This document shows, one piece after another, positions 2,843 to 39,143 of a stretch of 64,000 nucleotides of DNA. Below the pieces are notes generated by a model. The model saw only the letters and a list, made by a program, of their open reading frames with translations. It was not told the origin of the DNA and searched no databases. Origin of the DNA: Candidatus Doudnabacteria bacterium (lineage in GTDB: Bacteria > Patescibacteriota > Doudnabacteria > UBA920); contig JARLHZ010000039.1 in the NCBI GenBank assembly GCA_031291995.1, positions 18,380 through 82,379 on the forward strand, written 5' to 3'. The position numbers were made by a program, and so were the translations under genes. Position 1 is the stretch's first letter, and every line of letters begins with the position of its first letter.

Positions 2843-3787
2843 TTATTTTACCACTTGCTGTAAACTTTGTTCCAAGTCATTTAACTGCCCAAGCATCCAG
2901 CTTTGGTAAGTCTTGTCTTGCGGCATAGTTTCGGAAACCTGAACCACAGGAATACCCAACTGCTTGGCCATGTTTTGTAGGTTAGTGGTTATGGGAGTGA
3001 CAGTTTGGTTGTTATAGATCAAAACTTTAATCTGCTTATTTTGCACCTGCTGGTTGGTGGTTTTAACATCCGCCACGGATGGATCGTTGCCTTCGGCCAG
3101 AGCCTTTTCAAAGTTATAAGGGGTAAGTACATTTAAACTCATCGCTTGAGTCTGATAAAGATAGATGGTTTCCGTAAGCCCCACTGGCGTGTTTTGGTAT
3201 TTGGATTTTATTTCGTCTATTTTTTGCAATAATGGACTCAAGGAATTGTTAAATGTTTGGAGGTTGTTGTTAAAAGTTGACAAGTCGGCTGGATCAGCTT
3301 TCTTTAGCGCAGAGGTAATTGCATTGGCAATGCTGGCCATATTATCTATTCCATACCAAATGTGTGGGTTATCCGGCAAAGGATGAGCCGCGATTTGCCC
3401 TGCTATCAAGACCTGCCGGCTGCTGTTTGGCGAGGCTGACAATAATTTATCCATCCAAGTATCGTATTCAAGCCCGTTTTCCAGAACAATATCGGCCTGA
3501 CTGACTGCCACCGCGTCCGGCACGCTGGATTCATACTCATGTGGGTCAGCGTTCGGATCGGAGAGTATGCTGGTAACGGAAACATGCTCGCCGCCTAATT
3601 GTTTAACCACGTCACCGTAAAAGTTTTCAGCAGCTACGACTTTTACCACAGACGAACTTTTGGCTTGGTTATTAGCGTTAGTAGATTGCTGCGGAGTATT
3701 AGAATGTATATTAACTTTAATTATATAACCGAGAACCGCAATAAAAATTATGCCTAAAATGAAACCTAAAATCTTTTTATTATTCAT
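2843..3787 (-). CDS. metal-binding periplasmic-type substrate-binding protein (ZnuA/TroA cluster A-I), N-terminally membrane anchored
   Basis: N-terminal TM anchor. NPHIWY and DPHEYE His-containing motifs typical of the TroA/ZnuA family. 4-bp gap to the ATPase gene. Confidence 0.8.
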   Translation of the reverse strand: MNNKKILGFILGIIFIAVLGYIIKVNIHSNTPQQSTNANNQAKSSSVVKVVAAENFYGDVVKQLGGEHVSVTSILSDPNADPHEYESSVPDAVAVSQADIVLENGLEYDTWMDKLLSASPNSSRQVLIAGQIAAHPLPDNPHIWYGIDNMASIANAITSALKKADPADLSTFNNNLQTFNNSLSPLLQKIDEIKSKYQNTPVGLTETIYLYQTQAMSLNVLTPYNFEKALAEGNDPSVADVKTTNQQVQNKQIKVLIYNNQTVTPITTNLQNMAKQLGIPVVQVSETMPQDKTYQSWMLGQLNDLEQSLQQVVK

Positions 3788-3790
3788 ATT

Positions 3791-5089
3791 TTAATTGTTA
3801 ATTGTTAAATTATTTAAAGTTGATGAAGCACTGCTGGATGTGTCCGGAGTTATCGTTATCAAAGCAGGAGGCATTGTTGTGGGGTCGACTGCTGGCGGAG
3901 TAGAACTGGAAACATCTGATGCTGCGGGCAAATCTTCAACGGTTGTAGTGGAATTATTAGTTTGTGGTGTCTGAGCAGGAACGGTTGCTGGCTGTCTTTG
4001 GCTAACAGCCATTACATCGGGACACTTGCCGGGCTGCGACTGCAAAACATTGTTGGCCGAGAAAATACAAACCGGTAGCTTGGTTACGGTATCATAGATA
4101 GTGATACCTGCTGGCTGGTCAAGCGATCCAACCTCTAGCTGCTTAGTTTGAACCATATCGGCAATCAAACTCTCGACCTTTATAAAACCCTGCGCAATAC
4201 TTACTCCCAAACTTTTTAAGCCATCCAATATCCATGAAATATCGAGCATTGCGGATATTTTGGCATCCAGTCCCTGAATACCGGCCAGCGCCACACCAGC
4301 GGGGTCTATCGTAGAAATAGAACTACTACTGTTGCCAAGGCCGAAGGCTGTATAAAAATCTTCTGCAACCGGACCTATATGCACAATGTCCGAATTCTCT
4401 GTTTTATAATTCCAAGTATAGATGGGCAAACTATCAATCTTGGTTAAAATATTATCTGGGGTTATGGTGGCAAAATTTTCTTTTAATTCTTTACTGGAAG
4501 CATTCGTCCAGCTATAACCGTCAAAGTTTGCGATTGAAACCGGGGATTCTATGGTGGCAACGTTTAAGTTAGCCATAGTAGTGGAAGCGGTAAAATTTGC
4601 GTTGCCAGAAAATGATGCGCTGCCTTCGTTTGTAAATGCTCCGGTGCTGTCCAAGTCCCCGGTGTTAACGCTATTGACCGTGATGTTGTCGCCGGAAAGG
4701 TTGGTAGCAGCCAAAAAAGTTTGTTGGTTTGCGGCCGATACTGCTCCCGGAATGTAGACCTGCTGGAAGTCGGAAGAGTTGGGGTCGACTGAGGCCAGGG
4801 TTGGAAAAGAAGAAGTGTCTCCTTTGTCGCCCTTTTCTCCTTTTAGCAAACCCTGTGATACCATTTTATTTACCATATCTGTTACTAAGCTGGTAATGTA
4901 GGCATCGCTGACGGTGTAACTGCCTAAAACCTGTGGTTTTGTCAGACTGACTACCAGAGCCTTTTTATTACCATAAGCTAAGTAACGGTTGTTACTAAAA
5001 GCTAAGGCTCGGCTGGTATTTAGCGCAAAGATTAAAAACGCCAAAAAAACTGTAACTATTGGTATTTGCTTTGAAGGAGGCTTCGCCAT
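3791..5089 (-). CDS. membrane-anchored fibre-like protein with a short collagen-like Gly-X-Y stretch and a peptidase-S74 / intramolecular-chaperone (tail-fibre/endosialidase C-terminal) domain
   Basis: N-terminal TM. GEKGDKGDT triplets. SSKELKENF...DSLPIYTWNYKTE..DIVHIGPVAEDF...DPAGVALAGIQGL matches the SDxRLKxNI...auto-chaperone module of phage tail fibres. S/T/P-rich C-terminus. Stop is 3 bp from the SBP gene start. Confidence 0.7.
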   Translation of the reverse strand: MAKPPSKQIPIVTVFLAFLIFALNTSRALAFSNNRYLAYGNKKALVVSLTKPQVLGSYTVSDAYITSLVTDMVNKMVSQGLLKGEKGDKGDTSSFPTLASVDPNSSDFQQVYIPGAVSAANQQTFLAATNLSGDNITVNSVNTGDLDSTGAFTNEGSASFSGNANFTASTTMANLNVATIESPVSIANFDGYSWTNASSKELKENFATITPDNILTKIDSLPIYTWNYKTENSDIVHIGPVAEDFYTAFGLGNSSSSISTIDPAGVALAGIQGLDAKISAMLDISWILDGLKSLGVSIAQGFIKVESLIADMVQTKQLEVGSLDQPAGITIYDTVTKLPVCIFSANNVLQSQPGKCPDVMAVSQRQPATVPAQTPQTNNSTTTVEDLPAASDVSSSTPPAVDPTTMPPALITITPDTSSSASSTLNNLTINN

Positions 5090-5690: not shown

Positions 5691-6179
5691 TTGAATAATC
5701 TGATCATTTTTTCTACTCAATACTTGTACTTGCTGGTGGTTGTTCTAGCCACAGCGTATTTTTTTACCATCCCGAAAGACCAAAAGAGAAACTTTGGACT
5801 TTTGCTGATTATCGCCCTGCCCTGCATTTACCTAGTTTCAAGGGTAGCGGCTAACTTCTATTTCGATCCCCGTCCGTTTGTGATGGGGCACTTCACTCCA
5901 TTGATTCCCCATGCACCTGATAACGGCTTCCCTTCTGATCACGCCTTGATTACAAGCGCCATAGCTTCAGTAGTTTTTGTGTACAACAAAAAAGTAAGCG
6001 CTGTGCTTTGGGTGCTCACAATTATTGTAGGTCTGGCCAGAGTCCTTGCCGGCGTTCATCATCTCATTGATATTGCCGGAGCAATCACTATTTCTATTCT
6101 GGCAACCGCCGTTATAGATTACGTCCTAAAAAAAGCAAAAAGTTTTTACTTACAGAGACAAAATCTTCAGGTAGAGTAG
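5691..6179 (+). CDS. PAP2-family membrane phosphatase
   Basis: Motifs FDPRPF, PSDHA and ARVLAGVHHLIDI match the KxxxxxxRP / PSGH / SRxxxxxHxxxD PAP2 signature. 24 bp downstream of zur. Confidence 0.75.
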   Translation: MNNLIIFSTQYLYLLVVVLATAYFFTIPKDQKRNFGLLLIIALPCIYLVSRVAANFYFDPRPFVMGHFTPLIPHAPDNGFPSDHALITSAIASVVFVYNKKVSAVLWVLTIIVGLARVLAGVHHLIDIAGAITISILATAVIDYVLKKAKSFYLQRQNLQVE

Positions 6180-6270: not shown

Positions 6271-6579
6271 ATGCGTACCGATAAACAAATAATTCAAATT
6301 CGCAAAGAGCTTAAAGACGGTACTGAACAAAGAGTAATTTTTAAGATCCTCGCCGACACTAACCGTTACCGTATTTTTGAAATGTTGGGCAAACAGCCCC
6401 AACTTACCGTCAGCGACATGGCCAGAGTTCTTAAAATATCCCTACCCCTTGCCTCCCAGCACCTTAAGACTTTAGAGCGCGGTGGCCTCCTGCAAAAAGA
6501 AAAACGAGGCCAAAAAGTTTACTACGGACTCAGAACCGATAACCGGATTGCCCAGGCTATTACTAAAACCATTATATGA
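6271..6579 (+). CDS. ArsR/SmtB-family metal-responsive transcriptional regulator
   Basis: RIFEMLGKQPQLTVSDMARVLKISLPLASQHLKTLERGGLL is a canonical ArsR HTH. Confidence 0.8.
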   Translation: MRTDKQIIQIRKELKDGTEQRVIFKILADTNRYRIFEMLGKQPQLTVSDMARVLKISLPLASQHLKTLERGGLLQKEKRGQKVYYGLRTDNRIAQAITKTII

Positions 6580-7199
6580 AAAAAATCATTATTGTTTTAT
6601 CGGCAATATTCTCACTGGCCGCCGGCTGCCAGAGCGCTATTGTCACTCAAACTCCGCCGGCAAAACCAGGAGCCTGCACCCTGGAAGCCAAACAGTGCCC
6701 GGATGGCTCTTATGTTGGCCGCAGCGGCCCTAACTGCGAGTTTGCGGCCTGTCCTGAACCGAAAGCGACAACTACTCCTACTCAACCACCGTCTCCGGTA
6801 GTCTGCCCACAAATTGCCTTGGCCTGCCCGGACGGCAGCTATGTTAAACCGGAAGGACCAAATTGCAAAATCCCTGACTGCCCGACCCTAACCAGCGGCA
6901 TAGAGGGAAAAATTACCCTAGGCCCGACTTGCCCAGTAGAACGAATGCCGCCAGATCCTAACTGTGCAGACAAACCTTATCAGGCTATGGTAATAGTTAA
7001 AACCGCAGACGGGCAAAAAGAAATTACGCGCTTTACTTCCCAAACCGATGGTACGTTCAAACAAGCCTTAAAGCCAGGCACGTATTTGCTGGTGTCGGTA
7101 AGCGCTCAAGTCTATCCACGGGGCGTACAGCAAACCGTGATAGTGAACGCAAATACCTTCAGCCAGGTTACAATTAGCTATGATACTGGGATAAGGTAA
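6576..7199 (+). CDS. Cys-rich lipoprotein
   Basis: Lipobox LAAGC. Three repeats CPDGSYV..GPNC..(A/D)CP. 14 Cys in ~120 aa, then a beta-rich C-terminal domain. ATGA overlap with the ArsR gene. Confidence 0.7.
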   Translation: MKKIIIVLSAIFSLAAGCQSAIVTQTPPAKPGACTLEAKQCPDGSYVGRSGPNCEFAACPEPKATTTPTQPPSPVVCPQIALACPDGSYVKPEGPNCKIPDCPTLTSGIEGKITLGPTCPVERMPPDPNCADKPYQAMVIVKTADGQKEITRFTSQTDGTFKQALKPGTYLLVSVSAQVYPRGVQQTVIVNANTFSQVTISYDTGIR

Positions 7200-7200
7200 C

Positions 7201-7312
7201 CCCTACAAGCCGTTTCTTACAACAACCCTACAAGCTATTTCAAGCGTTTCCTGCCCGAGTCGACATCTGGAGCCATCGGCAAATTCACGCGGCGTTTTAC
7301 GTGTAGGGTAGG
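7201..7312. repeat. ~100-nt structured direct repeat, copy A (CCCTACA...TGTAGGG long imperfect hairpin)
   Basis: About 80% identical to 8761..8863. Outer arms CCCTACA/TGTAGGG and inner arms GCGTTTCC/GCAAATTCACGC are complementary. Confidence 0.75.
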
Positions 7313-7329
7313 CTAAGAAGGGAAGGAAG

Positions 7330-8694
7330 TTAAAATGGTATCCCGATTGTATCAGTAGCCTCGGCGATATCCGCCTTTTTCGGCTGTTTAACAAGCTCCT
7401 TTTGCATTTCAGTTTTTTGTTCGGCGCTTAGCTGATCAAACTCCTCTAAGTCCTGGCGGGACTTTACCTGTAAGTGTTTGTCCATTTTTATAACTTTTTC
7501 GCTAACCTTCAATGCCATTTCATTAAATCCAAGCAGTTTGATGCCTGCCAGGGAGCGGACGCGGGACAGGGCCACGTAGCCCATACCATATTCAAAGGTC
7601 TTGCTTAAATCGATTTCCGCACAGTCCAAGCTCATCCCTTGGCTTTTATGAACAGTAATGGCCCAAGCCAGTCGTAGCGGCACTTGGCTGATTGAGGCTA
7701 ATATTTTCCTGCCGTCTTCAATCTTCCATTTTTCAGGATAGGCGATAATCACCTTGCCGTGAACAGTTTTAATAATTGGGTAGCCGCTGTCTTTGTCAAA
7801 ACCTGTTACCGTACCCAGCGTACCGTTAACATAGCCCAAATCAAAATTATTCTTTACGAACATAACCACGGTACCGGTTTTTAATACCAGCCGTTCAGGT
7901 GCCAGGCAGCTTTCTCTCAGCGTTTCCACCAAGTGTGGAATGCCTTCAGAGTACATTTGGTAAACTGATTCCTTGCCTTTTAATTTAGCCAGCTCAAACT
8001 GGTTATAAGCGTCTACGTTGCTGTTGTGGGTATGCAACTTAGTGGGCTTAATCTTAAAACTTACCGGCTGATTGATCCGTTCAGCGAGTACGGCTTTGGT
8101 ATCCATTGTAGTTCCGTTACGGCGAATGTCGTTTAATACCCGTAAAAATCTTTTATCATCTTGGCGGTATTGCTCTTCCAGATAGCAAATTTTGATGTCC
8201 ATATTTTGCCAGATTCCAGACTCAGTCACAAATCTGCCGTCCTCCCTGGCAGTCCTTGTTACGGGCGGCAGTTGGAAAAAATCCCCGCATAGGATAGTCT
8301 GGATGCCGCCAAAGGGCGCGGCGCTTTCCTTAAATTCTTTGCAGATTCTGTCCACCAGATCCAGCCGACTGGCATTGAGCATGGAGATTTCGTCGATTAT
8401 TAAAACCTTGGCGTATTTTATCCGTTCCCACAGGTGCTCTTTTTCCGTCAGTCTCTCTATCTGCTCATCGGACAGGTTCTGCTCAATGCCCATGCCGCAC
8501 CAGGAATGAATGGTGCGACCGTTGATATGCGTTGCCGCGATGCCGGTAGAGGCCGTTATCCCCGGATCAACATCATTGTGTTTCAGGTAATTTATATATT
8601 GGTTCAGCAAAAAAGTCTTGCCGCAGCCGGCGGGGCCGGTGAGGAAGACGTTATATCCAGACTTTAACATTTCTAAGGCTTGGGGTTGGGTCAT
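7330..8694 (-). CDS. PIF1/RecD-like SF1 DNA helicase
   Basis: Walker A GPAGCGKTFLL, Walker B LIIDEISML, motif ITVHKSQGMSLD. Confidence 0.8.
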   Translation of the reverse strand: MTQPQALEMLKSGYNVFLTGPAGCGKTFLLNQYINYLKHNDVDPGITASTGIAATHINGRTIHSWCGMGIEQNLSDEQIERLTEKEHLWERIKYAKVLIIDEISMLNASRLDLVDRICKEFKESAAPFGGIQTILCGDFFQLPPVTRTAREDGRFVTESGIWQNMDIKICYLEEQYRQDDKRFLRVLNDIRRNGTTMDTKAVLAERINQPVSFKIKPTKLHTHNSNVDAYNQFELAKLKGKESVYQMYSEGIPHLVETLRESCLAPERLVLKTGTVVMFVKNNFDLGYVNGTLGTVTGFDKDSGYPIIKTVHGKVIIAYPEKWKIEDGRKILASISQVPLRLAWAITVHKSQGMSLDCAEIDLSKTFEYGMGYVALSRVRSLAGIKLLGFNEMALKVSEKVIKMDKHLQVKSRQDLEEFDQLSAEQKTEMQKELVKQPKKADIAEATDTIGIPF

Positions 8695-8760
8695 AAATTG
8701 GTTGTCTTTGTCTGTGTGGAATTAATTATATCGTTTTAAGGATGGAGGATTTTTATACTG

Positions 8761-8863
8761 GCCTACAAGCAATCACCCTACATAGGATTTCAAACGTTTC
8801 CTGCCCAGGCGATATATGGAGCCACCAGCAAATTCACGCAGCGATTTGTATGTAGGGTGGGAG
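8761..8863. repeat. ~100-nt structured direct repeat, copy B
   Basis: Same-orientation copy of 7201..7312. The two copies bracket the helicase gene. Confidence 0.75.
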
Positions 8864-8994
8864 TAAACAAGGTGTTAATATTACTTGGAAATTCCTACAA
8901 AGCGAGTCTTTGAAATTTTGGCTGGTTATGATAGTCTTATAGTATAGATTTTCGTCGAAGGCCCGTCCTTTTTGGCGGAGAAATGGTTTCAGAG

Positions 8995-9037
8995 CAATCT
9001 GAAATAGGCGAAAACGCGGACCCCTTAACAGGGGTCT
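8995..9037 (+). terminator. Rho-independent terminator module (ATAGGCGAAAACGC + GACCCCTTAACAGGGGTC + T-run)
   Basis: 9-bp GC stem followed by TGTTTTTTG. About 80% identical to the module at 10473..10517. Confidence 0.65.
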
Positions 9038-9245
9038 GTTTTTTGTGAGAGTGCTGGTGTTGGTGTCACTGAGTGAAGTATCCTACCCTGCTCATTACGG
9101 GCTACAATCGTCCGCTCATAGCGGGGAGGTGGTAATTCGATTACAAAATGGAAAGGAATCAGTTTTACAGGGGTGTCAGCGGAAAAATATCGGGTAGAGT
9201 CCTGGCTATGCCGATTGTCTGTTTTGTACCAGGCATAATTTAAAG

Positions 9246-10382
9246 TTAATGTTTTTTTTCCGGTTTCATGAACCCGGAGAAGTTTTGCGAGTTCACGCCA
9301 CCCAATTCTTTCCGGCCATTTAAATCTTTAACGAAAATATTTTTTATTTTATCGGTCAAAGAGCGTTCTTTCCATTTGAATTCAAACCCGTCCACAAGCC
9401 CATCGGAAACTTCAATAAGGTCTATTTCTTCGCCCTTGTAAGAGCGCCAGAAATAGTGTTCGGCAAAGGCTCCCAGCGCCTCATTTCGCTTCTTCCTTTC
9501 CACGACGCAGAAGTTTTCCCAGAGCTGGCCCAGGTCCTGACGTCTGTCCAACTGAGTGAAATCGTTTATAATGGCATTGCGGATGCCGAGATCGTAAAAA
9601 TAATATTTTTTTTGTTTGATAATGGATTTTCTTTTGTTGGTAAAGTAGGGCTTTAAGGAAAAAATGATGTACAGTTTTTCCAGAATATCTAAATAGCTGG
9701 TCACGGTTTTGGTGTCAAGTCCCACAATGGTTGCCAGCTCGTTCATAGATACCTGGCCGCCCAATTGCAGAGCCAGGGCTTTTAAGATATGTTCCAGCGA
9801 GCGGGGGTTCTTTATATATTCAATGTTCAGCACGTCTTTAAACAGGTAATTGGTTGCAATATTTTGGATGATATTTCGGCGCGTTTCATCGGTATGAGCC
9901 GTTACAACTTCCGGGTACGAACCATATACCATGAAGTTGTTTAATTCAAATAAGCCTACGGCCCCGGCTTCGCCAAACGAGATGGGGTACATATTATAAG
10001 AAAAGTACCTGCCGGTTAAAGGTTCGTTGACGGTATTGGAAAGTTCAAAAGCAGAAGAACCCGTGGCAATGATTTTCAGTTTGGGCAGCTCGTCAAAAAT
10101 TACTTTCAGCTTGATGCCGATGTCTTCTATTCTCTGGGCCTCGTCAACAACCAGCAAATCAATATCCGCAAATTGCTTAACCATGTCGCGGGAAGGCCGG
10201 TTAAGTTTTTCCTGGTCGTCGATAAAATCTCCGTTTATATAGGTGCTCTTGGCGAAGCGGTCTAAAAAGTGTTTGACTAAAGTTGTTTTCCCTACCTGCC
10301 TGGGCCCGTAAATTATTAAAATTTTGCGATCCCGAAGGTTTTGTGAAATTTTTTCCTCTAAATATCGCTTTATTTCAGGCAT
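9246..10382 (-). CDS. AAA+ ATPase of the DUF4143 (COG1373-like) family
   Basis: Walker A GPRQVGKTTL, Walker B LLVVDEAQRI. About 378 aa, the typical size for the family. Confidence 0.75.
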   Translation of the reverse strand: MPEIKRYLEEKISQNLRDRKILIIYGPRQVGKTTLVKHFLDRFAKSTYINGDFIDDQEKLNRPSRDMVKQFADIDLLVVDEAQRIEDIGIKLKVIFDELPKLKIIATGSSAFELSNTVNEPLTGRYFSYNMYPISFGEAGAVGLFELNNFMVYGSYPEVVTAHTDETRRNIIQNIATNYLFKDVLNIEYIKNPRSLEHILKALALQLGGQVSMNELATIVGLDTKTVTSYLDILEKLYIIFSLKPYFTNKRKSIIKQKKYYFYDLGIRNAIINDFTQLDRRQDLGQLWENFCVVERKKRNEALGAFAEHYFWRSYKGEEIDLIEVSDGLVDGFEFKWKERSLTDKIKNIFVKDLNGRKELGGVNSQNFSGFMKPEKKH

Positions 10383-10517: not shown

Positions 10518-10915
10518 CCATCAAAAAAATCGGCCATGCCCTATAGGGGCTAACCGATTTTTCTGTCCTAAGCTGTCTTTATGACTTAGTGATCCAACAT
10601 TGCAATAAGAGGTTGGCTGTTCCTATTCCGCAGATACGCTACGGACACCAGCCATACGGTCAGTATTCGGACTGGCCTTCGGCTATTTTAGCAAGTCGGC
10701 ATGCCTTCTTGCTAAACCAATCTCTGCCAAAAAAGGGCAGGCCTTCGCCGAGACCTTGTGGAGCCGAAGGGCTGGTTATGCTCCGCCGTCGACTGTTTAC
10801 AAAACAGTTGCTCTGCTATTGAACTACTTCGGCATGGGGTGAGGGACGGGTAATGCTCCCGCTTCTCCCGATTCACAGTCGGGTATAATTACTTTTATAC
10901 GACCCTCAACATAAG

Positions 10916-10989
10916 TGGCGCCGGCTGAAGGAACTGAACCCTCACTAACGGGTTTGGAATCCGTCGTCTTACCGTTAGACGAAGCCGAC
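10916..10989 (-). tRNA. candidate tRNA-Trp (anticodon CCA)
   Basis: Hand-folded cloverleaf: 7-bp acceptor with one G-U, U8, 4-bp D-stem with A14 and G18G19, anticodon loop UUCCAAA with U33 and A37, 4-nt variable loop, T-arm GAGGG/UUCAGUU/CCUUC, discriminator G, encoded CCA. Weak points are an A-C closing the anticodon stem and G at position 58. Confidence 0.55.
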
Positions 10990-11177
10990 AAACAAAAAAG
11001 CACCCAGCTATGGTTGCAATCCAATTTATGTTTAAAAGTTTATCTTATGCAAAAACATAAAGCAAATTACCCATAGCAAAATCCGTGGAATCTTTCCACG
11101 TGGTGGTATGATGTGTTGTTTGGGTAACTATTTGCTTCATAATAAATAAGACGAAAGCACTTATAGTTTTGTTACAG

Positions 11178-34372: not shown

Positions 34373-34494
34373 AATTATGCCGAAACTGCGGCGGTCCGGT
34401 CGGATGTTCCTACAACGACAAAAAATCAGTAAATTAGCATAAACCGCACAGGATAAATCTAAACCTTTTTGGTTTATGTTAGAGAAAGTAATAT

Positions 34495-36579
34495 ATGATA
34501 AAAAAATTATTAACCAGACTTGGCATAGCGGGCGGAACTTTGGCGATTATTATTGCCGGGGCCGCGGCCTTTAGCGCGTTTGAGGCGCACGTAGTCAATG
34601 TGACGGCGTCCATCAACAACGCTTTAACGGTGCCGCAGGAGGCAAGCGGTATAAGCTTTGGGGCAATTTTTCCCGAAGAAGTCGCGCACCAGCCGCTGAA
34701 CGTCTCTTTGAGCACTTCGTTTTTGAACGAGTCGCGCGTGGACGACGTTTCGTACATGATTCGCCAAAAGCCGAAATGCGTGAGCGACACCGACCCGAGC
34801 GTGCATCCGCAGGTTACCGAACAAGGGGTGACTTTTGTTTGTCCGGCCGGCTCGCACCAAATGCCCCTGCTCTGCCCGTATTTGTCCAAGCATTTGGTAA
34901 CGGGAAATTGTAATCCCGACCTGCCGGTGGGCACCGAAGGCTCCTGCACCGGCATAGACGCGTTCCATGGCACGGCCAGCTCCACTTTGTGGACGGAAAC
35001 CGTAACCGAAGCCACCCAGGTAAACGGCCACCTTGTAAAAGGAGGCAATACCACCGACAACTGGGACATAGATTTGCACGCGCCCTGCTTTAAAGGAATG
35101 TGCGCCCAGGACAACGTAATTCCTGCCGACTTCCAACCCGACCCCAGCTTAGAAGGCCAAACCTTCGGCTGTGACCTTTGGGTGGAAGTTAACGGCATTA
35201 GCACAACAACGGAAACCGGGACCGGAACTTTAACCGTTACTAAAGTGGTTGTCGGCGGAACCAAAGTAGTTTCCGATTTTCCGCTGTTTGTTGACGGCGC
35301 ATCGGTGACATCCGGAGTTACCGCTACCACAACCGCGACTACCCATCAGGTCTCGGAAACTTCCGACCCCGATTACGTAGGCACCTTTAGCGGCGACTGC
35401 GGCTCAACCGGTCTAGTCACCGTCCCCCCCAACGGAAGTGCCTCGTGTACATTAACCAACACCTTTGACCCACGACCGGGAACTTTGACTATCGTCAAAA
35501 ATACAACCGGTGGCAACGGCACGTTTGACTTTACCGTCACGGGTGCTTCCTCATCGTCTCCAAGCATTACTACGGTAGGCGGTACCGGCACGACGGGTTC
35601 CATGACAGTTGGTTCCGGCACTTATACCGTATCGGAAACTGTACCGGACGGCTGGGCACTGGGCACGGCTACTTGTGATGATGGTACATCCTCATTAACG
35701 GATAATACCATCTCAAACATCAAGATTGCTCCAGCCAGCAATGTTACTTGTACGTTTAACGATAGTAAAAATACGGGAACTATTACAGTTTATAAAGTTG
35801 TAAACAACAATGGCTTAGGTACTTCCACGCCAGCGGATTTCCAGATGCAAATCGACGGTTCCAGTGTGGCGCAAGGAGCAACTACAACCGAAGCCACCGG
35901 CCTGCATACTGTTTCAGAAGCCAATGCCGGTCCCTACGTTACTTCCTTTAGTGGTGACTGTAACACCAGCGGCCAAATAACTTTGGCCACTAAGCAAGCC
36001 GCGGTTTGTGTTGTTACGAATACGTTTCCCATAGCAAGTTTAAAGATCGTTAAAACGGTGAATAATATTCACGGTGGCACCGCAGCCATTTCAAGCTTTA
36101 CCTATTTTGTAGGTTCAACCCAAGTACAAAATAATACAGTAACGAACTTCATCCCTGGAACTTATAATATTTCCGAAGGTGGGGTAAGGGGTTATAGTGC
36201 CACATTTAGTGGGGCGTGTAATGGTGTTAATTCCGTAACTTTGCACGCCGGAGATAACGTCGAATGTGACATAACAAATACCGATATTGCGCCGGTAATC
36301 AGTTTGAATCTCAATATAACCGGTACTGGAACAGCCACAACCAGTGACTTTAATATGTTCATTGATGGGACTTTCGTTCCGCAGAATAGTTCACAATCGG
36401 TGACTTCTAATGCCAGTCACTCTATTACTATTACCGGCAATAACCATACATCAGGCTATACAAATTCCGGAGTCACTGGTACATCAGCATTTGGCGTAAG
36501 TTGTCCCGCATCTCTGCCAGGTAATGTAACTTTGACTCCTGGTGATTCAATCTCGTGTACTATAACGGAAACCCATTAG
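34495..36579 (+). CDS. secreted surface protein, paralogue 1 of the SAFEAHVVNVTA family; conserved Cys-containing N-domain plus prealbumin-like/Cna-B-type repeats
   Basis: N-terminal K-rich start, hydrophobic core and AAAFSAFEAHVVNVTA junction resembling SipW-cognate signals. Conserved blocks FGxxFP(E/Q)E, CPAG..MPLLCPYLSK, WDIDLH.PCFKG.CAQD, GCDLW.EV.GI. C-terminal repeats with GxYTVSE..P.GW.L...C. Confidence 0.8.
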   Translation: MIKKLLTRLGIAGGTLAIIIAGAAAFSAFEAHVVNVTASINNALTVPQEASGISFGAIFPEEVAHQPLNVSLSTSFLNESRVDDVSYMIRQKPKCVSDTDPSVHPQVTEQGVTFVCPAGSHQMPLLCPYLSKHLVTGNCNPDLPVGTEGSCTGIDAFHGTASSTLWTETVTEATQVNGHLVKGGNTTDNWDIDLHAPCFKGMCAQDNVIPADFQPDPSLEGQTFGCDLWVEVNGISTTTETGTGTLTVTKVVVGGTKVVSDFPLFVDGASVTSGVTATTTATTHQVSETSDPDYVGTFSGDCGSTGLVTVPPNGSASCTLTNTFDPRPGTLTIVKNTTGGNGTFDFTVTGASSSSPSITTVGGTGTTGSMTVGSGTYTVSETVPDGWALGTATCDDGTSSLTDNTISNIKIAPASNVTCTFNDSKNTGTITVYKVVNNNGLGTSTPADFQMQIDGSSVAQGATTTEATGLHTVSEANAGPYVTSFSGDCNTSGQITLATKQAAVCVVTNTFPIASLKIVKTVNNIHGGTAAISSFTYFVGSTQVQNNTVTNFIPGTYNISEGGVRGYSATFSGACNGVNSVTLHAGDNVECDITNTDIAPVISLNLNITGTGTATTSDFNMFIDGTFVPQNSSQSVTSNASHSITITGNNHTSGYTNSGVTGTSAFGVSCPASLPGNVTLTPGDSISCTITETH

Positions 36580-36643
36580 AAATAAACCAAAATAGTTTCC
36601 GCTTTAATCGGAAACCAATAAATAAAAGTAATTAAGTAATCCT

Positions 36644-37393
36644 ATGAAAAAATTATTTATGCGCGCGGGGTTGGCGGCTGGGACTTTGGGGCTGATTATT
36701 GCCGGCGCCGCGGCGTTCAGCGCTTTTGAAGCGCATGTGGTCAACGTGACCGCGACCATCAGCAATGCCACGGATATTTCCACCTCGGAAATAACTTTTG
36801 GCAATGTATTCCCGCAGGAAATCCTGCACAATCCCATAACCCTTTCCTTGTCCTCGTCATTCTTGAGCGCTTCCAATACCAGGGCTTCGATTGTAGACTA
36901 CGTTCTTAAACAGAAGCCGAAGTGTATGGCTACCGATCCTGCTAACGCGGTTCAGTTCGCCCAGGTTGTTGATGTTCCCGGCGCAGAAGGCGGTCCGGTA
37001 ACCTTTACCTGCCCCGCAGGCTATACGGAAATGCCCCTGCTTTGCCCGTACTTATCTAAAACCAGCCCGACCCAGGGAGACACCAGCGTGCCATCCTTTC
37101 ACGGAACGACCGATTTAGCTTCCTGGACCGACGCGGTTAGCATGGCCACGGAAGCCAGCGGACAGTTAAGCACAACCGGCGCCACCAGCACCACCTGGGA
37201 TATAGATTTGCACACGCCATGCTTTAAAGGTGAATGTGCCCAGGACTGGGACAGCTTTGTAACTACGGCCAATCCGGCTGTAAACGAGAACGCCTCCATT
37301 ACCCCGGAGTACTACGAGGCAGACCCGGCCGACCAGAATGTGCCAATGGGCTGCGACTTATGGTATGAAGTCAGCGGAATTGGCCAACCATAA
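36644..37393 (+). CDS. secreted surface protein, paralogue 2 (N-domain only)
   Basis: Same signal and all conserved blocks as paralogue 1. 249 aa. Confidence 0.8.
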   Translation: MKKLFMRAGLAAGTLGLIIAGAAAFSAFEAHVVNVTATISNATDISTSEITFGNVFPQEILHNPITLSLSSSFLSASNTRASIVDYVLKQKPKCMATDPANAVQFAQVVDVPGAEGGPVTFTCPAGYTEMPLLCPYLSKTSPTQGDTSVPSFHGTTDLASWTDAVSMATEASGQLSTTGATSTTWDIDLHTPCFKGECAQDWDSFVTTANPAVNENASITPEYYEADPADQNVPMGCDLWYEVSGIGQP

Positions 37394-37484
37394 TTATAAA
37401 CTGATAAATTTTAATTAAGCAGTTTCAACTAAATTCCCCCCTGCTCTTTACCCGGTTCATTATGGGATGAACCGAAAAAGGGCG

Positions 37485-37531
37485 GGGGAGGGTCTGCTTG
37501 TTAATTAATTTTAATGAGCAGGCCCTCCCCC
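37485..37531. terminator. strong GC hairpin (GGGGGAGGGTCTGCT...AGCAGGCCCTCCCCC), terminator-like on the minus strand
   Basis: 15-bp near-perfect stem with an A-run upstream and none downstream on plus. Confidence 0.4.
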
Positions 37532-37614
37532 AAAGGATATAAACCACAATAGACAAAATTGACCCCTCCTTCGCTAAAGCTACGGAGGGTAAGCAAAAAT
37601 TAACGAACAAACTG

Positions 37615-37692
37615 TGCCATTGCGAGGGAGTGCATCCGACCGAAGCAATCTTTATCCTCGATAAGATCGCTTCGGCTGCACTCGCGATGACA
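37615..37692. repeat. dispersed palindromic repeat, copy 2 (complete ~80-nt hairpin)
   Basis: 5' arm CATTGCGAGGGAGTGCATCCGACCGAAGCAATCT is complementary to 3' arm AGATCGCTTCGGCTGCACTCGCGATG. Sits in the 5' leader of paralogue 3. Confidence 0.7.
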
Positions 37693-37712
37693 CCCAGGAA
37701 GGAAAATAAATT

Positions 37713-39143
37713 ATGAAAAAATTATTTATGCGCGCGGGATTGGCGACTGGGACTTTGGGGTTGATTATCGCTGGCGCCGCGGCGTTCAGCGCGTTTGAAG
37801 CGCATGTGGTCAATGTGACCGCGACTATAAGTAATGCCACGGATATTACTACATCGGCAATAACTTTTGGCAACGTGTTCCCGCAGGAAATTCTGCATAA
37901 CCCCGTGACGCTTGCCCTCTCCAGCTCATTTTTGAGCCAAAGCAATACCCGGGCCACCAGCGTGGACTATGTAATCAAACAAAAGCCAAAGTGCGCGTTA
38001 ATCCCCGGGATAACCGGAGACTTGCCGCCATACGCCGAAGTTGCCGATAACTCGGACGGGACTTTTGTCTGCCCCACTGGATACCAAGCTATGCCTCTGC
38101 TTTGCCCGTATCTTTCCAAGACTAGCCCGACAGAAGGCGACACCAGCGTCCCGTCTTTCCATGGCCCGACCGATTTAGCTTCGTGGACCGACGCGGTTAG
38201 CGTCGCGACAGAAGCTACCGGCCATTTGACCGCGGCAAACCCCAGCACCACTTGGGATATTGACTTGCACACCCCCTGTTTTTCCGGAGAATGCGCCCAG
38301 GACTGGAACAGCTTTGTAACCGGCGCTAACCCGGCGGTAACAACTACTTCGCAGCCTTATAACACGGCTTATTACCAGGCCTCCTCTACATATCAGGGTC
38401 TGCCCATGGGCTGCGACCTGTGGTACGAAGTCAGCGGAATTGGTACATCCACGGCTCCGAGCCAAAATATTGTTATGGTCGGCGCGGGGGATCTTGCGAC
38501 GAGCACTGTCGACGCCATCGCAAATCCTACAAAGTGGTTTATGTATAATGATGACAATAACACCATAGACAACACAATCGGATCCTTTGTCTCAGGACCG
38601 GCAACGCCGCCATACGGGACCGGAAGCGTCGAGTTTACATTAGGCGCAAATCCGCTTTCCCGCAAAAATATTGCGACCTATCAGTTCTCCGGTACTTCGC
38701 TTTCCGCCATCACGCAAATGTCTTTTGGGGCTTACTCGCATAGCGGAGTGGCCAGCTCAACCGAATCGCCGTTCTTTAATTTTAACGTCGATTTAGTCAA
38801 TTCAAATACTTTCCAGGGTCGATTGGTTTATGTGCCAAGCACCAATAGCGTAACTGTGCCTCAAGACGCATGGAACAGTTTCGATACCATTAACGGCGGC
38901 AACGCACTGTGGACCTGGTCGCATTTTGCCAGCAATGGCAACAAATGGCCCGATAACAATACCAACCAGTACCGCACATGGAATGATATTAAGACCGCAT
39001 TCCCAACCGCAAAGGTTTTGGTTTCAGATCCTTGGTTAGGCGTTCGCGTAGGCGAACCGGGACCGACAAACTATACCGGCGATGTCAATTTCTTTAGCAT
39101 CGCTACCGGCGGAACGCCGACGGTTTATGAATTCCACAATTAG
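37713..39143 (+). CDS. secreted surface protein, paralogue 3
   Basis: Nearly identical N-terminal 60 aa to paralogue 2, the same conserved Cys blocks, and a 250-aa unique C-terminal domain. Confidence 0.8.
   Translation: MKKLFMRAGLATGTLGLIIAGAAAFSAFEAHVVNVTATISNATDITTSAITFGNVFPQEILHNPVTLALSSSFLSQSNTRATSVDYVIKQKPKCALIPGITGDLPPYAEVADNSDGTFVCPTGYQAMPLLCPYLSKTSPTEGDTSVPSFHGPTDLASWTDAVSVATEATGHLTAANPSTTWDIDLHTPCFSGECAQDWNSFVTGANPAVTTTSQPYNTAYYQASSTYQGLPMGCDLWYEVSGIGTSTAPSQNIVMVGAGDLATSTVDAIANPTKWFMYNDDNNTIDNTIGSFVSGPATPPYGTGSVEFTLGANPLSRKNIATYQFSGTSLSAITQMSFGAYSHSGVASSTESPFFNFNVDLVNSNTFQGRLVYVPSTNSVTVPQDAWNSFDTINGGNALWTWSHFASNGNKWPDNNTNQYRTWNDIKTAFPTAKVLVSDPWLGVRVGEPGPTNYTGDVNFFSIATGGTPTVYEFHN

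Follow-up and report, generated by a model that had tools for sequence, protein, structure and literature searches.

Among the closest known counterparts of the element described here are the attC sites of integrons, which are imperfect palindromes of about 60-140 bp that lie in consecutive intergenic regions in one orientation. In integron cassettes, the site lies against or partly over the stop codon of the preceding gene, a single gene moves together with its 3' site, and a tyrosine recombinase is encoded at one end of the array. The R'' and R' boxes of attC read RYYYAAC ... GTTRRRY, with a conserved AAC/GTT triplet. Sedentary chromosomal integrons with homogeneous attC repeats and attC clusters that lack an integrase (CALIN) are further comparators. 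Small palindromes of other kinds include miniature inverted-repeat transposable elements (MITEs) and repeats of the repetitive extragenic palindrome (REP) and bacterial interspersed mosaic element (BIME) type, such as the Correia elements of Neisseria and the Rickettsia palindromic elements (RPEs), while in integrative mobile elements exploiting Xer (IMEX) and in pdif modules genes are bracketed by Xer-family recombination sites and successive insertions can build arrays. In addition, consecutive intergenic regions separated by open reading frames (ORFs) can contain the DUF1874 motif, which is conserved and non-coding; no integrase was seen with it, and its authors suggested that it might be an attC-like single-stranded DNA site of an unusual type (Weinberg et al. 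2017, PMC5737381). Here we analyzed a 64-kb stretch of a Candidatus Doudnabacteria genome (contig JARLHZ010000039.1, positions 18,380 to 82,379; hereafter the window) in which a PIF1-family helicase gene is flanked by two copies, A and B, of a non-coding repeat of about 130 bp that we named E. We tentatively read E as an oriented site acting at the DNA level, either a module boundary or a recombination site, whose logic resembles that of attC and which, by the tests applied, is not itself an attC site.

The pair had been noticed in a sequence-only reading of the window, and its description as two same-orientation repeats of about 80% identity bracketing a PIF1-type helicase gene was borne out by alignment, pattern counts and Pfam. 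The copies lie on the same strand and align in two blocks with a one-base offset between them, namely 7220-7256 with 8770-8806 (81% identity) and 7255-7312 with 8804-8861 (79% identity). Diagnostic sub-patterns of 19 and 23 nt occurred exactly twice in the window, against a shuffle expectation of 0.00-0.08, and the family hidden Markov model (HMM) found no third copy there even at an E-value of <=10. The location given earlier was right and the length of about 100 nt somewhat too short; comparison with other copies widened the elements to 7200-7333 (A) and 8744-8874 (B), the extent of copy A being defined by homology with copies in other contexts (L018, L020 and L022; L numbers refer to the compared loci). 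The arms ACCCTACA/TGTAGGGT were located at 7225-7232/7302-7309 in copy A and at 8775-8782/8851-8858 in copy B, and the inner complementarities GCGT/ACGC and TGCC/GGCA were found in the window copies as well. On the minus strand, copy A starts with the TAA that ends the PIF1 gene, and its far end, which reads ATAAGGTAA on the plus strand, gives the convergent 207-aa gene its last codons and stop. Copy B lies 50 nt upstream of the PIF1 start, just past a TATAAT box at 8725-8730.

The repeats are not unique to this pair. We aligned 17 copies, 15 of them distinct, from at least 7 assemblies, all of which are Candidatus Doudnabacteria. A scan of 185,579 species genomes, with a search pattern that recovers 12 of the 14 known copies, gave true matches in two Doudnabacteria metagenome-assembled genomes (MAGs) only, and the other five matches failed the family HMM. 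On a 949-kb Doudnabacteria contig, the pattern matches were confined to one 5-kb locus, in which the HMM counts four copies, and the second Doudnabacteria MAG contained a single pattern match site. One metagenome scan yielded six contigs, all from a single peat sample. Three pattern scans of viral contigs gave 0 matches, and a phage or viral origin of E was rejected on this ground. Copies per genome are few (about 2-5 seen) and clustered, with three in L003, the source of the closest helicase relative. In unrelated contexts, copies can nevertheless be 90-92% identical (L018 and copy A; the fourth copy of L023 and that of L021), which points to recent copying of E. E is specific to its lineage and has a narrow distribution, as one more form of the intergenic repeats or recombination sites already described.

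The arrangement of E relative to genes was compared among these loci. In L023, the order is 16S rRNA gene, Xer-like tyrosine recombinase gene, E, PIF1, E, an ArsR-type helix-turn-helix (HTH) gene on the opposite strand, E, a LOOT RNA with the gene of a 682-aa secreted protein, and E. Orientation is uniform within loci, in 4/4 copies of L023, 3/3 of L028 and 2/2 of the window. The block PIF1-E-HTH-E-LOOT-682aa-E is 98.7% identical between L023 and L028 and occupies different chromosomal sites in the two; in L028 its neighbors are housekeeping genes and a GIY-YIG gene, a recombinase gene is lacking and PIF1 has no E upstream. The unit composed of promoter, PIF1 and copy A recurs in L022 (Table 1), where the flanks on both sides are unrelated to those of the window, the genes on the left encode unrelated proteins and the right side has no copy B. 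Copy B is a presence/absence polymorphism among the compared loci. L011 consists of the 207-aa gene, a phage-like 136-aa gene, a copy-B-like E and the conserved right-hand region, so that the phage-like gene occupies the slot of copy A and PIF1, and PIF1 is missing. The gene that follows the recombinase also differs, being PIF1 in L023, an 865-aa gene in L021 and L029, and a PLD/SNF2 helicase gene without E in L026. These layouts place E at gene ends and at synteny breakpoints and show PIF1 moving together with its 3' copy. On the best-supported reading, E marks, and probably mediates, the exchange of accessory modules in a clade of Doudnabacteria.

Among the three interpretations that the sequence-only reading had offered, att-like boundaries of a mini-cassette fit best, given the recurrence of the 1.55-kb unit between unrelated flanks and the polymorphism of copy B. 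In the comparison with relatives that it had called for, the unit of PIF1 and copy A recurred in L022, and copy B was absent from both L022 and L028. In keeping with its remark that helicases of this class are frequent in defence and mobile contexts, the helicase was found in a variable, accessory setting, with a neighboring ATPase that matches PDC-S01 (Table 1). A specific link between repeat and helicase was not supported, since E also follows the recombinase gene, the 682-aa secreted-protein gene and other genes, and PIF1 homologues with 72-77% identity in other lineages of the Candidate Phyla Radiation (CPR) carry no such repeat.

The anatomy of E was then deduced from the aligned copies. 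The outer inverted repeat, ACCCTACA...TGTAGGGT, has arms about 70 nt apart, and extra TGTAGG-like half-sites lie past one arm. The centre is an asymmetric, conserved stretch of 40 nt (GTTTCCT ... CGAC ATCTGGAGCCA ... AATT) that includes a 20-bp partial dyad, CCGAnnnCTnnAGnnnTCGG, and the element contains several CCCTACA/TGTAGG half-sites. On the helicase strand, E begins with TAA followed by CTTCCTTTTT, and this start (TAA, then CTTCC...) serves as the stop codon of three unrelated genes, namely PIF1, the recombinase gene (L021 and L023) and a gene in L018. Two unrelated genes, the 207-aa gene of the window and a 208-aa gene in L022, take their final codons and stop from the far end of a class I copy and have only their last 9 nt in common. 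In unrelated contexts, conservation extends at least 25 nt outside both arms of the inverted repeat, and the outer ends themselves form no inverted repeat. Most copies have AAGG(A/T)-like motifs close to either end, which may belong to the element. For copies at the same locus in three genomes, variable columns made up 10% of the centre, compared with 31% for the arms and 47% for the outer flanks (p about 0.03); for scale, codon positions 1, 2 and 3 of PIF1 were variable at 8, 4 and 31% in a similar but not identical trio of genomes. Variation in the centre thus resembles that at non-synonymous sites of PIF1 and variation in the arms that at synonymous sites, with small counts in both cases. 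This pattern in the alignment suggests that the centre, and not the hairpin arms, is under selection in place, which argues against pure junk and against a structure-based function.

The hairpin that had been proposed from the letters of the window, closed by CCCTACA/TGTAGGG, is real with regard to its arms and inner complementarity, and its maintenance by evolution is not borne out. When the 88-nt palindromic core of 15 copies was compared with dinucleotide shuffles, the mean z was -1.9 on the plus strand and -2.2 on the minus strand, 4 of the 15 copies had z > -0.7, and the window copies with their flanks included gave z between -0.4 and -1.8. Such moderate extra stability is expected of an imperfect palindrome. 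The consensus energy calculated by RNAalifold was -6.6 kcal/mol for the plus strand and -12.0 kcal/mol for the minus strand, and the covariation terms were positive on both. Explicit pair counts, run on two versions of the proposed structure, revealed that the pairs were kept in 86.6% of cells, compared with 87.5% in column shuffles; the covariation score was under the shuffle mean, a double change was seen at one pair only, and the inner pair 44-90 was broken in 8 of 14 copies. In addition, the outer stem is lost in two copies and the centre contains indels. The covariance-model search that had been suggested found no match at any threshold tried: with Rfam 15 on both strands, there was none at the gathering threshold, none at an E-value of <=10 in L003 and none at <=5 in window positions 7150-9300. 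A structured RNA or a single-stranded DNA hairpin was rejected on the absence of covariation, and the earlier idea of a family of small structured RNAs is not supported. Most likely, E acts as a DNA site and not as a folded RNA.

Several other candidates were rejected. A frame of the form PY..F.AFPARTDIWSHRQI.. ending in a stop is found in about 10 of the 17 copies; in the remainder it is broken by indels of 1-2 nt or by stops, a start codon is absent from most copies, and the variable columns show no codon-phase bias (23/29/24), which speaks against a small-protein gene. The template and variable repeats of a diversity-generating retroelement (DGR) were dismissed because at most 48% of the mismatches fell on any one base type in each ordered copy pair and there was no adenine bias. 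With regard to a promoter, many copies have a TATAAT-like box at one of their ends but no consistent -35 element, class I copies have no box, and a promoter scan found nothing at copy A or copy B. An intrinsic terminator was also rejected, as no U-tract comes after a hairpin in E and the terminators nearby are separate from it. Near the E copy of L020, a 354-aa reverse transcriptase is encoded (2922-3986, minus strand) whose best match, a group II intron reverse transcriptase, scores 152 bits and lies under the cut-off, so it may belong to a DGR or to another retroelement; a GC-rich, structured-looking region (L020, 1900-2260) lies between a transglutaminase-like gene and the same copy.

If E is a recombination site, it would work as double-stranded DNA, and a protein would recognize the asymmetric 40-bp centre together with the repeated CCCTACA/TGTAGG motifs. 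Tyrosine recombinases would be the best candidates for this protein, for example the Xer-like enzyme whose gene lies next to that of the 16S rRNA. The neighboring gene would then be inserted, deleted or swapped through recombination at E or between two of its copies, and genes would tend to move with the copy that adjoins their stop codon, as PIF1 may do with copy A, analogous to an ORF with its attC. Under this scheme, which we infer from the layouts, recombination would take place at E itself rather than merely near it, would be site-specific and would depend on an enzyme of the proposed kind. An unlikely extension would be an integron-like cassette system in Doudnabacteria that is independent of IntI, in which PIF1, surface proteins with LOOT RNAs and regulators each carry an oriented 3' site of about 130 bp and are exchanged by the Xer-family recombinase of an island at the 3' end of the 16S rRNA gene.

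The only recombinase associated with E, encoded at L021 575-1543, has its best scores with XerA, XerD and XerC (169-176 bits), against 89.9 bits with the integron integrase model TIGR02249 (cut-off 265) and 65 bits with PRK15417 (cut-off 435). The order of 16S rRNA gene and recombinase gene is kept in four Doudnabacteria assemblies (L021, L023, L026 and L032), and the genes that follow differ each time. In L032, a 5.1-kb segment that opens with the Xer-like recombinase gene is enclosed by a perfect direct repeat of 147 nt (5816-5962 and 10918-11064), whose first 12 nt form the end of the 16S rRNA gene. In the long-read MAG L023, the recombinase gene is split by a one-base frameshift (9180-9260) into ORFs of 117 and 177 aa, either through an assembly error or because it is a pseudogene, which bears on whether the array remains active. 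E showed no similarity to the 16S-proximal att repeat or spacer (local alignments with z<3), and GC skew at this scale was uninformative on the location of the terminus or of dif.

A number of observations weigh against recombination at E. No recombinase or transposase gene was found in the 64-kb window, and the genome from which the window comes (L026) has the recombinase gene without an adjacent E. An island targeting the 3' end of the 16S rRNA gene appears to use this recombinase as its integrase, and the direct repeats of that island in L032 are unrelated to E. Some modules have a single E, namely PIF1 in L022 and L028 and the 136-aa gene in L011, and the left and right halves of E assort freely, with no fixed crossover point. 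For these reasons, our confidence in a boundary or recombination site is kept tentative. The uniform orientation amounts to effectively one observation, because all multi-copy loci descend from one ancestral array, and copies inside one array are just 58-80% identical. The rearrangements could also be a by-product of homologous recombination between repeats or of an insertion-prone variable region. Linkage of half-sites was tried as a marker of crossover and abandoned, the right-half variants being independent of both neighbors. In L022, the hexamer TAAGGT occurs without mismatch on either side of the 1.55-kb unit (8430-8435 and 9981-9986) and could represent a recombination core, a target duplication or chance.

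E shares with attC the imperfect palindrome of similar length, the consecutive intergenic positions in one orientation, the contact with the upstream stop codon and the single gene moving with its 3' site, and two genomes that bear E have the gene of a tyrosine recombinase at one end of their array. The boxes of E, ACCCTAC ... GTAGGGT, are present in 13 of the 15 distinct copies, the other two having no 3' box; they resemble RYYYAAC/GTTRRRY, but TAC/GTA replaces AAC/GTT. The associated recombinase is Xer-like and not IntI, and the unpaired spacer is about 11 nt long, compared with 5-6 nt in attC. Whereas attC is a conserved hairpin with little sequence conservation, E keeps its sequence and not its structure, with pairing that does not covary. 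E modules carry putative promoters of their own and some have one site only; integron cassettes are mostly promoterless and depend on the common Pc promoter. Thus, E departs from attC in integrase type, box triplet and structural covariation and agrees with it in having consecutive 3' sites of the same orientation. The DUF1874 motif has the same layout as E, although it belongs to a different sequence and structure family and has a covariation-supported multistem fold, which is absent from E. IMEX and pdif modules share with E the repeated sites that bracket genes, the arrays and a Xer-family recombinase, a candidate in the case of E; however, pdif sites alternate in orientation, whereas E copies are direct and about 4 times longer. 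No dif-like core of 28-31 bp (two arms of about 11 bp and a spacer of 6-8 bp) was evident in E by eye, no systematic search having been made, and inspection of the centre showed arms of 5-6 bp, GCCGAC / ATCGGC, around a spacer of 10-12 bp. The literature on integrons, MITEs or 16S-targeting islands in CPR bacteria contained nothing relevant that we could find.

The main rival explanation is that E is a low-copy selfish palindrome of the MITE, REP or RPE kind, spread in trans by an enzyme and surviving at the gene ends of a compact genome, with no host function and with incidental rearrangements. We consider this somewhat less likely than the boundary or recombination site. Like MITEs and REPs, E is non-coding and palindromic, lies at stop codons and between convergent genes, where such elements can supply stops or terminators, and has arm mutations that are uncompensated, as expected of decaying copies; its long imperfect palindrome has some extra stability, and its sub-families are 90-92% identical in unrelated contexts. 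However, the inverted repeat is internal and not terminal, with conservation continuing past both arms to ends that do not mirror each other. The copies are few, clustered and uniformly oriented within loci rather than many, dispersed and oriented both ways, and the asymmetric centre varies, at a given locus, about as little as non-synonymous sites do. Neither the window nor most loci showed a transposase gene. Whereas REP and BIME repeats measure 20-40 nt, number in the hundreds and are accompanied by the RAYT (IS200/IS605-like) transposase, E is about 130 nt long and rare, and no RAYT-type transposase was found in the window or in the compared loci. No clear target-site duplication was found around E copies and no clean empty site among the compared loci; L031, considered as an empty site for copy A, was discarded because its flanking gene is unrelated. 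With its internal inverted repeat, low copy number, uniform orientation and lack of a clear target-site duplication, E gives no support to the MITE part of the sequence-only reading, at least for a classical MITE.

Two further explanations were considered. It is improbable, in our estimate, that E acts as RNA of the helicase strand, either as a REP-like 3' untranslated region that protects or processes the upstream mRNA or as a small RNA. E usually lies directly 3' of a co-directional gene (PIF1, the recombinase gene, the 682-aa gene and the L018 gene), the minus strand folds slightly better and permits G-U pairs, and a shared terminator-like sequence with a U-tract lies about 50 nt past E in L003/L028 and in L020, so that E is probably transcribed there. 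Against this stand the lack of compensatory covariation, helices that pair no better than shuffled columns, the weak consensus fold energy with its positive covariation term, the loss of the outer stem in two copies, the indels of the centre and the absence of any Rfam match even at an E-value of <=10; moreover, copy B and the third copy of L023 are not behind a co-directional gene. It is more doubtful still that E is a composite operator or binding platform, for example for the adjacent ArsR/SmtB-type HTH protein, that controls its neighbors without recombination. The conserved 40-bp centre with its partial dyad and the several half-sites would suit such a platform, and less than 1 kb separates E from an ArsR-type HTH gene in L003, L023, L028 and the window, where the gene is at 6271-6579. 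These co-occurrences, however, represent one ancestral locus, the HTH regulator of the window has no relation to the 108-aa gene next to E in L022, and no gene of this type lies near E in L020, L021 or L029. Two copies lie between convergent gene ends, where there is no promoter to control, and an operator would leave the breakpoints and the stop codons supplied by E unexplained. A DNA-level boundary or recombination site thus remains our preferred, though tentative, reading of E.

Table 1. Positions of the repeat copies, their parts and the adjacent genes in the window
Feature	Position	Strand	Remarks
207-aa gene	6576..7199	+	weak carboxypeptidase-regulatory-like domain; convergent with PIF1; stop codon inside the end of copy A
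Travelling unit of promoter, PIF1 and copy A, 1.55 kb	7191..8743	-	corresponds to L022 8428-9979, 88.6% identity
Copy A of E, class I flank	7200..7333	-	homology with L018, L020, L022
Imperfect palindromic core of copy A	7225..7309	.	ACCCTACA (7225-7232) ... TGTAGGGT (7302-7309)
Central 40-nt asymmetric block of copy A	7246..7285	.	GTTTCCTGCCCGAGTCGACATCTGGAGCCATCGGCAAATT; best-conserved stretch of the family, with invariant columns
PIF1-family SF1B helicase gene, 454 aa	7330..8694	-	Pfam PIF1 131 bits, 5e-38; Pif1_2B domain; TATAAT box 8725-8730
Copy B of E, class II flank	8744..8874	-	present in L003, L023, L011; absent at the matching position in L022, L028
Central conserved block of copy B	8796..8834	.	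one base shorter than that of copy A
AAA_14/DUF4143 ATPase gene	9246..10382	-	full-length match to PADLOC candidate defence protein PDC-S01; accessory-gene neighbor past copy B

The best PHROG class of the helicase is Dda-like helicase (1e-69), and its homologues in L003, L022, L023 and L028 show 92-94% identity, the closest being that of L003 (94%). In the NCBI entries, the 207-aa protein is MDR3643388 of a Candidatus Doudnabacteria MAG, and the helicase MDR3643389 from the same MAG falls in the 90% cluster of the window helicase. The TATAAT box lies 30 nt upstream of the PIF1 start and reads TGaTATAAT in relatives, and the LOOT/682-aa modules have a TTGACA...TATAGT motif, both being consensus matches only. 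LOOT RNAs (Rfam RF03000, 64-80 bits) were detected at L003 3020-3136, L020 2659-2780 and L028 14732-14846 on the plus strand and at L032 7875-7990 on the minus strand. In L003, L020 and L028 they lie 160-260 nt past E, always before or beside a variable gene; L032 has no E, and the window has no LOOT RNA.

The ATPase past copy B matches PDC-S01, which PADLOC lists as a candidate single-gene defence protein, with an E-value of about 1e-127, and its gene is missing from L011, which is otherwise syntenic. Just past copy B (8908-9049, plus strand) lies a candidate small RNA gene, in which a TTGAAA motif precedes a stretch of about 100 nt that closes with a strong intrinsic terminator (9016-9049). 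Identity to L011 6005-6140 is about 97% for this candidate, compared with about 85% for the flanking genes, and Rfam gave no match to it. At 10762-10989 on the minus strand, Rfam calls three tandem tRNA genes (34-50 bits) and ARAGORN calls one (tRNA-Trp); the two extra calls may be atypical CPR tRNAs. The remainder of the window is an ordinary CPR chromosome with genes for a ZnuABC transporter, Fur, tRNAs, RNase J, UvrA, UvrC, surface proteins and a PilB-like ATPase, and it includes three tandem paralogous genes for SpaA-like (prealbumin-fold) surface proteins (34490-38450, plus strand) with segments that are 71-83% identical.

The genomes of CPR bacteria are tiny, and gene exchange among them is little understood. 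E sits where accessory genes appear, vanish or are replaced, and the genes at the places it marks include a helicase, a candidate defence ATPase as neighbor, a phage-like gene and surface-protein modules. If E is merely a selfish palindrome, it still marks the variable regions of Doudnabacteria genomes. If it is a true recombination site, it would provide a testable handle on gene flux in uncultivated CPR bacteria and would extend cassette capture beyond the integrons of IntI; were the IntI-independent cassette system to prove true, it would be the first cassette-capture platform described for CPR bacteria.

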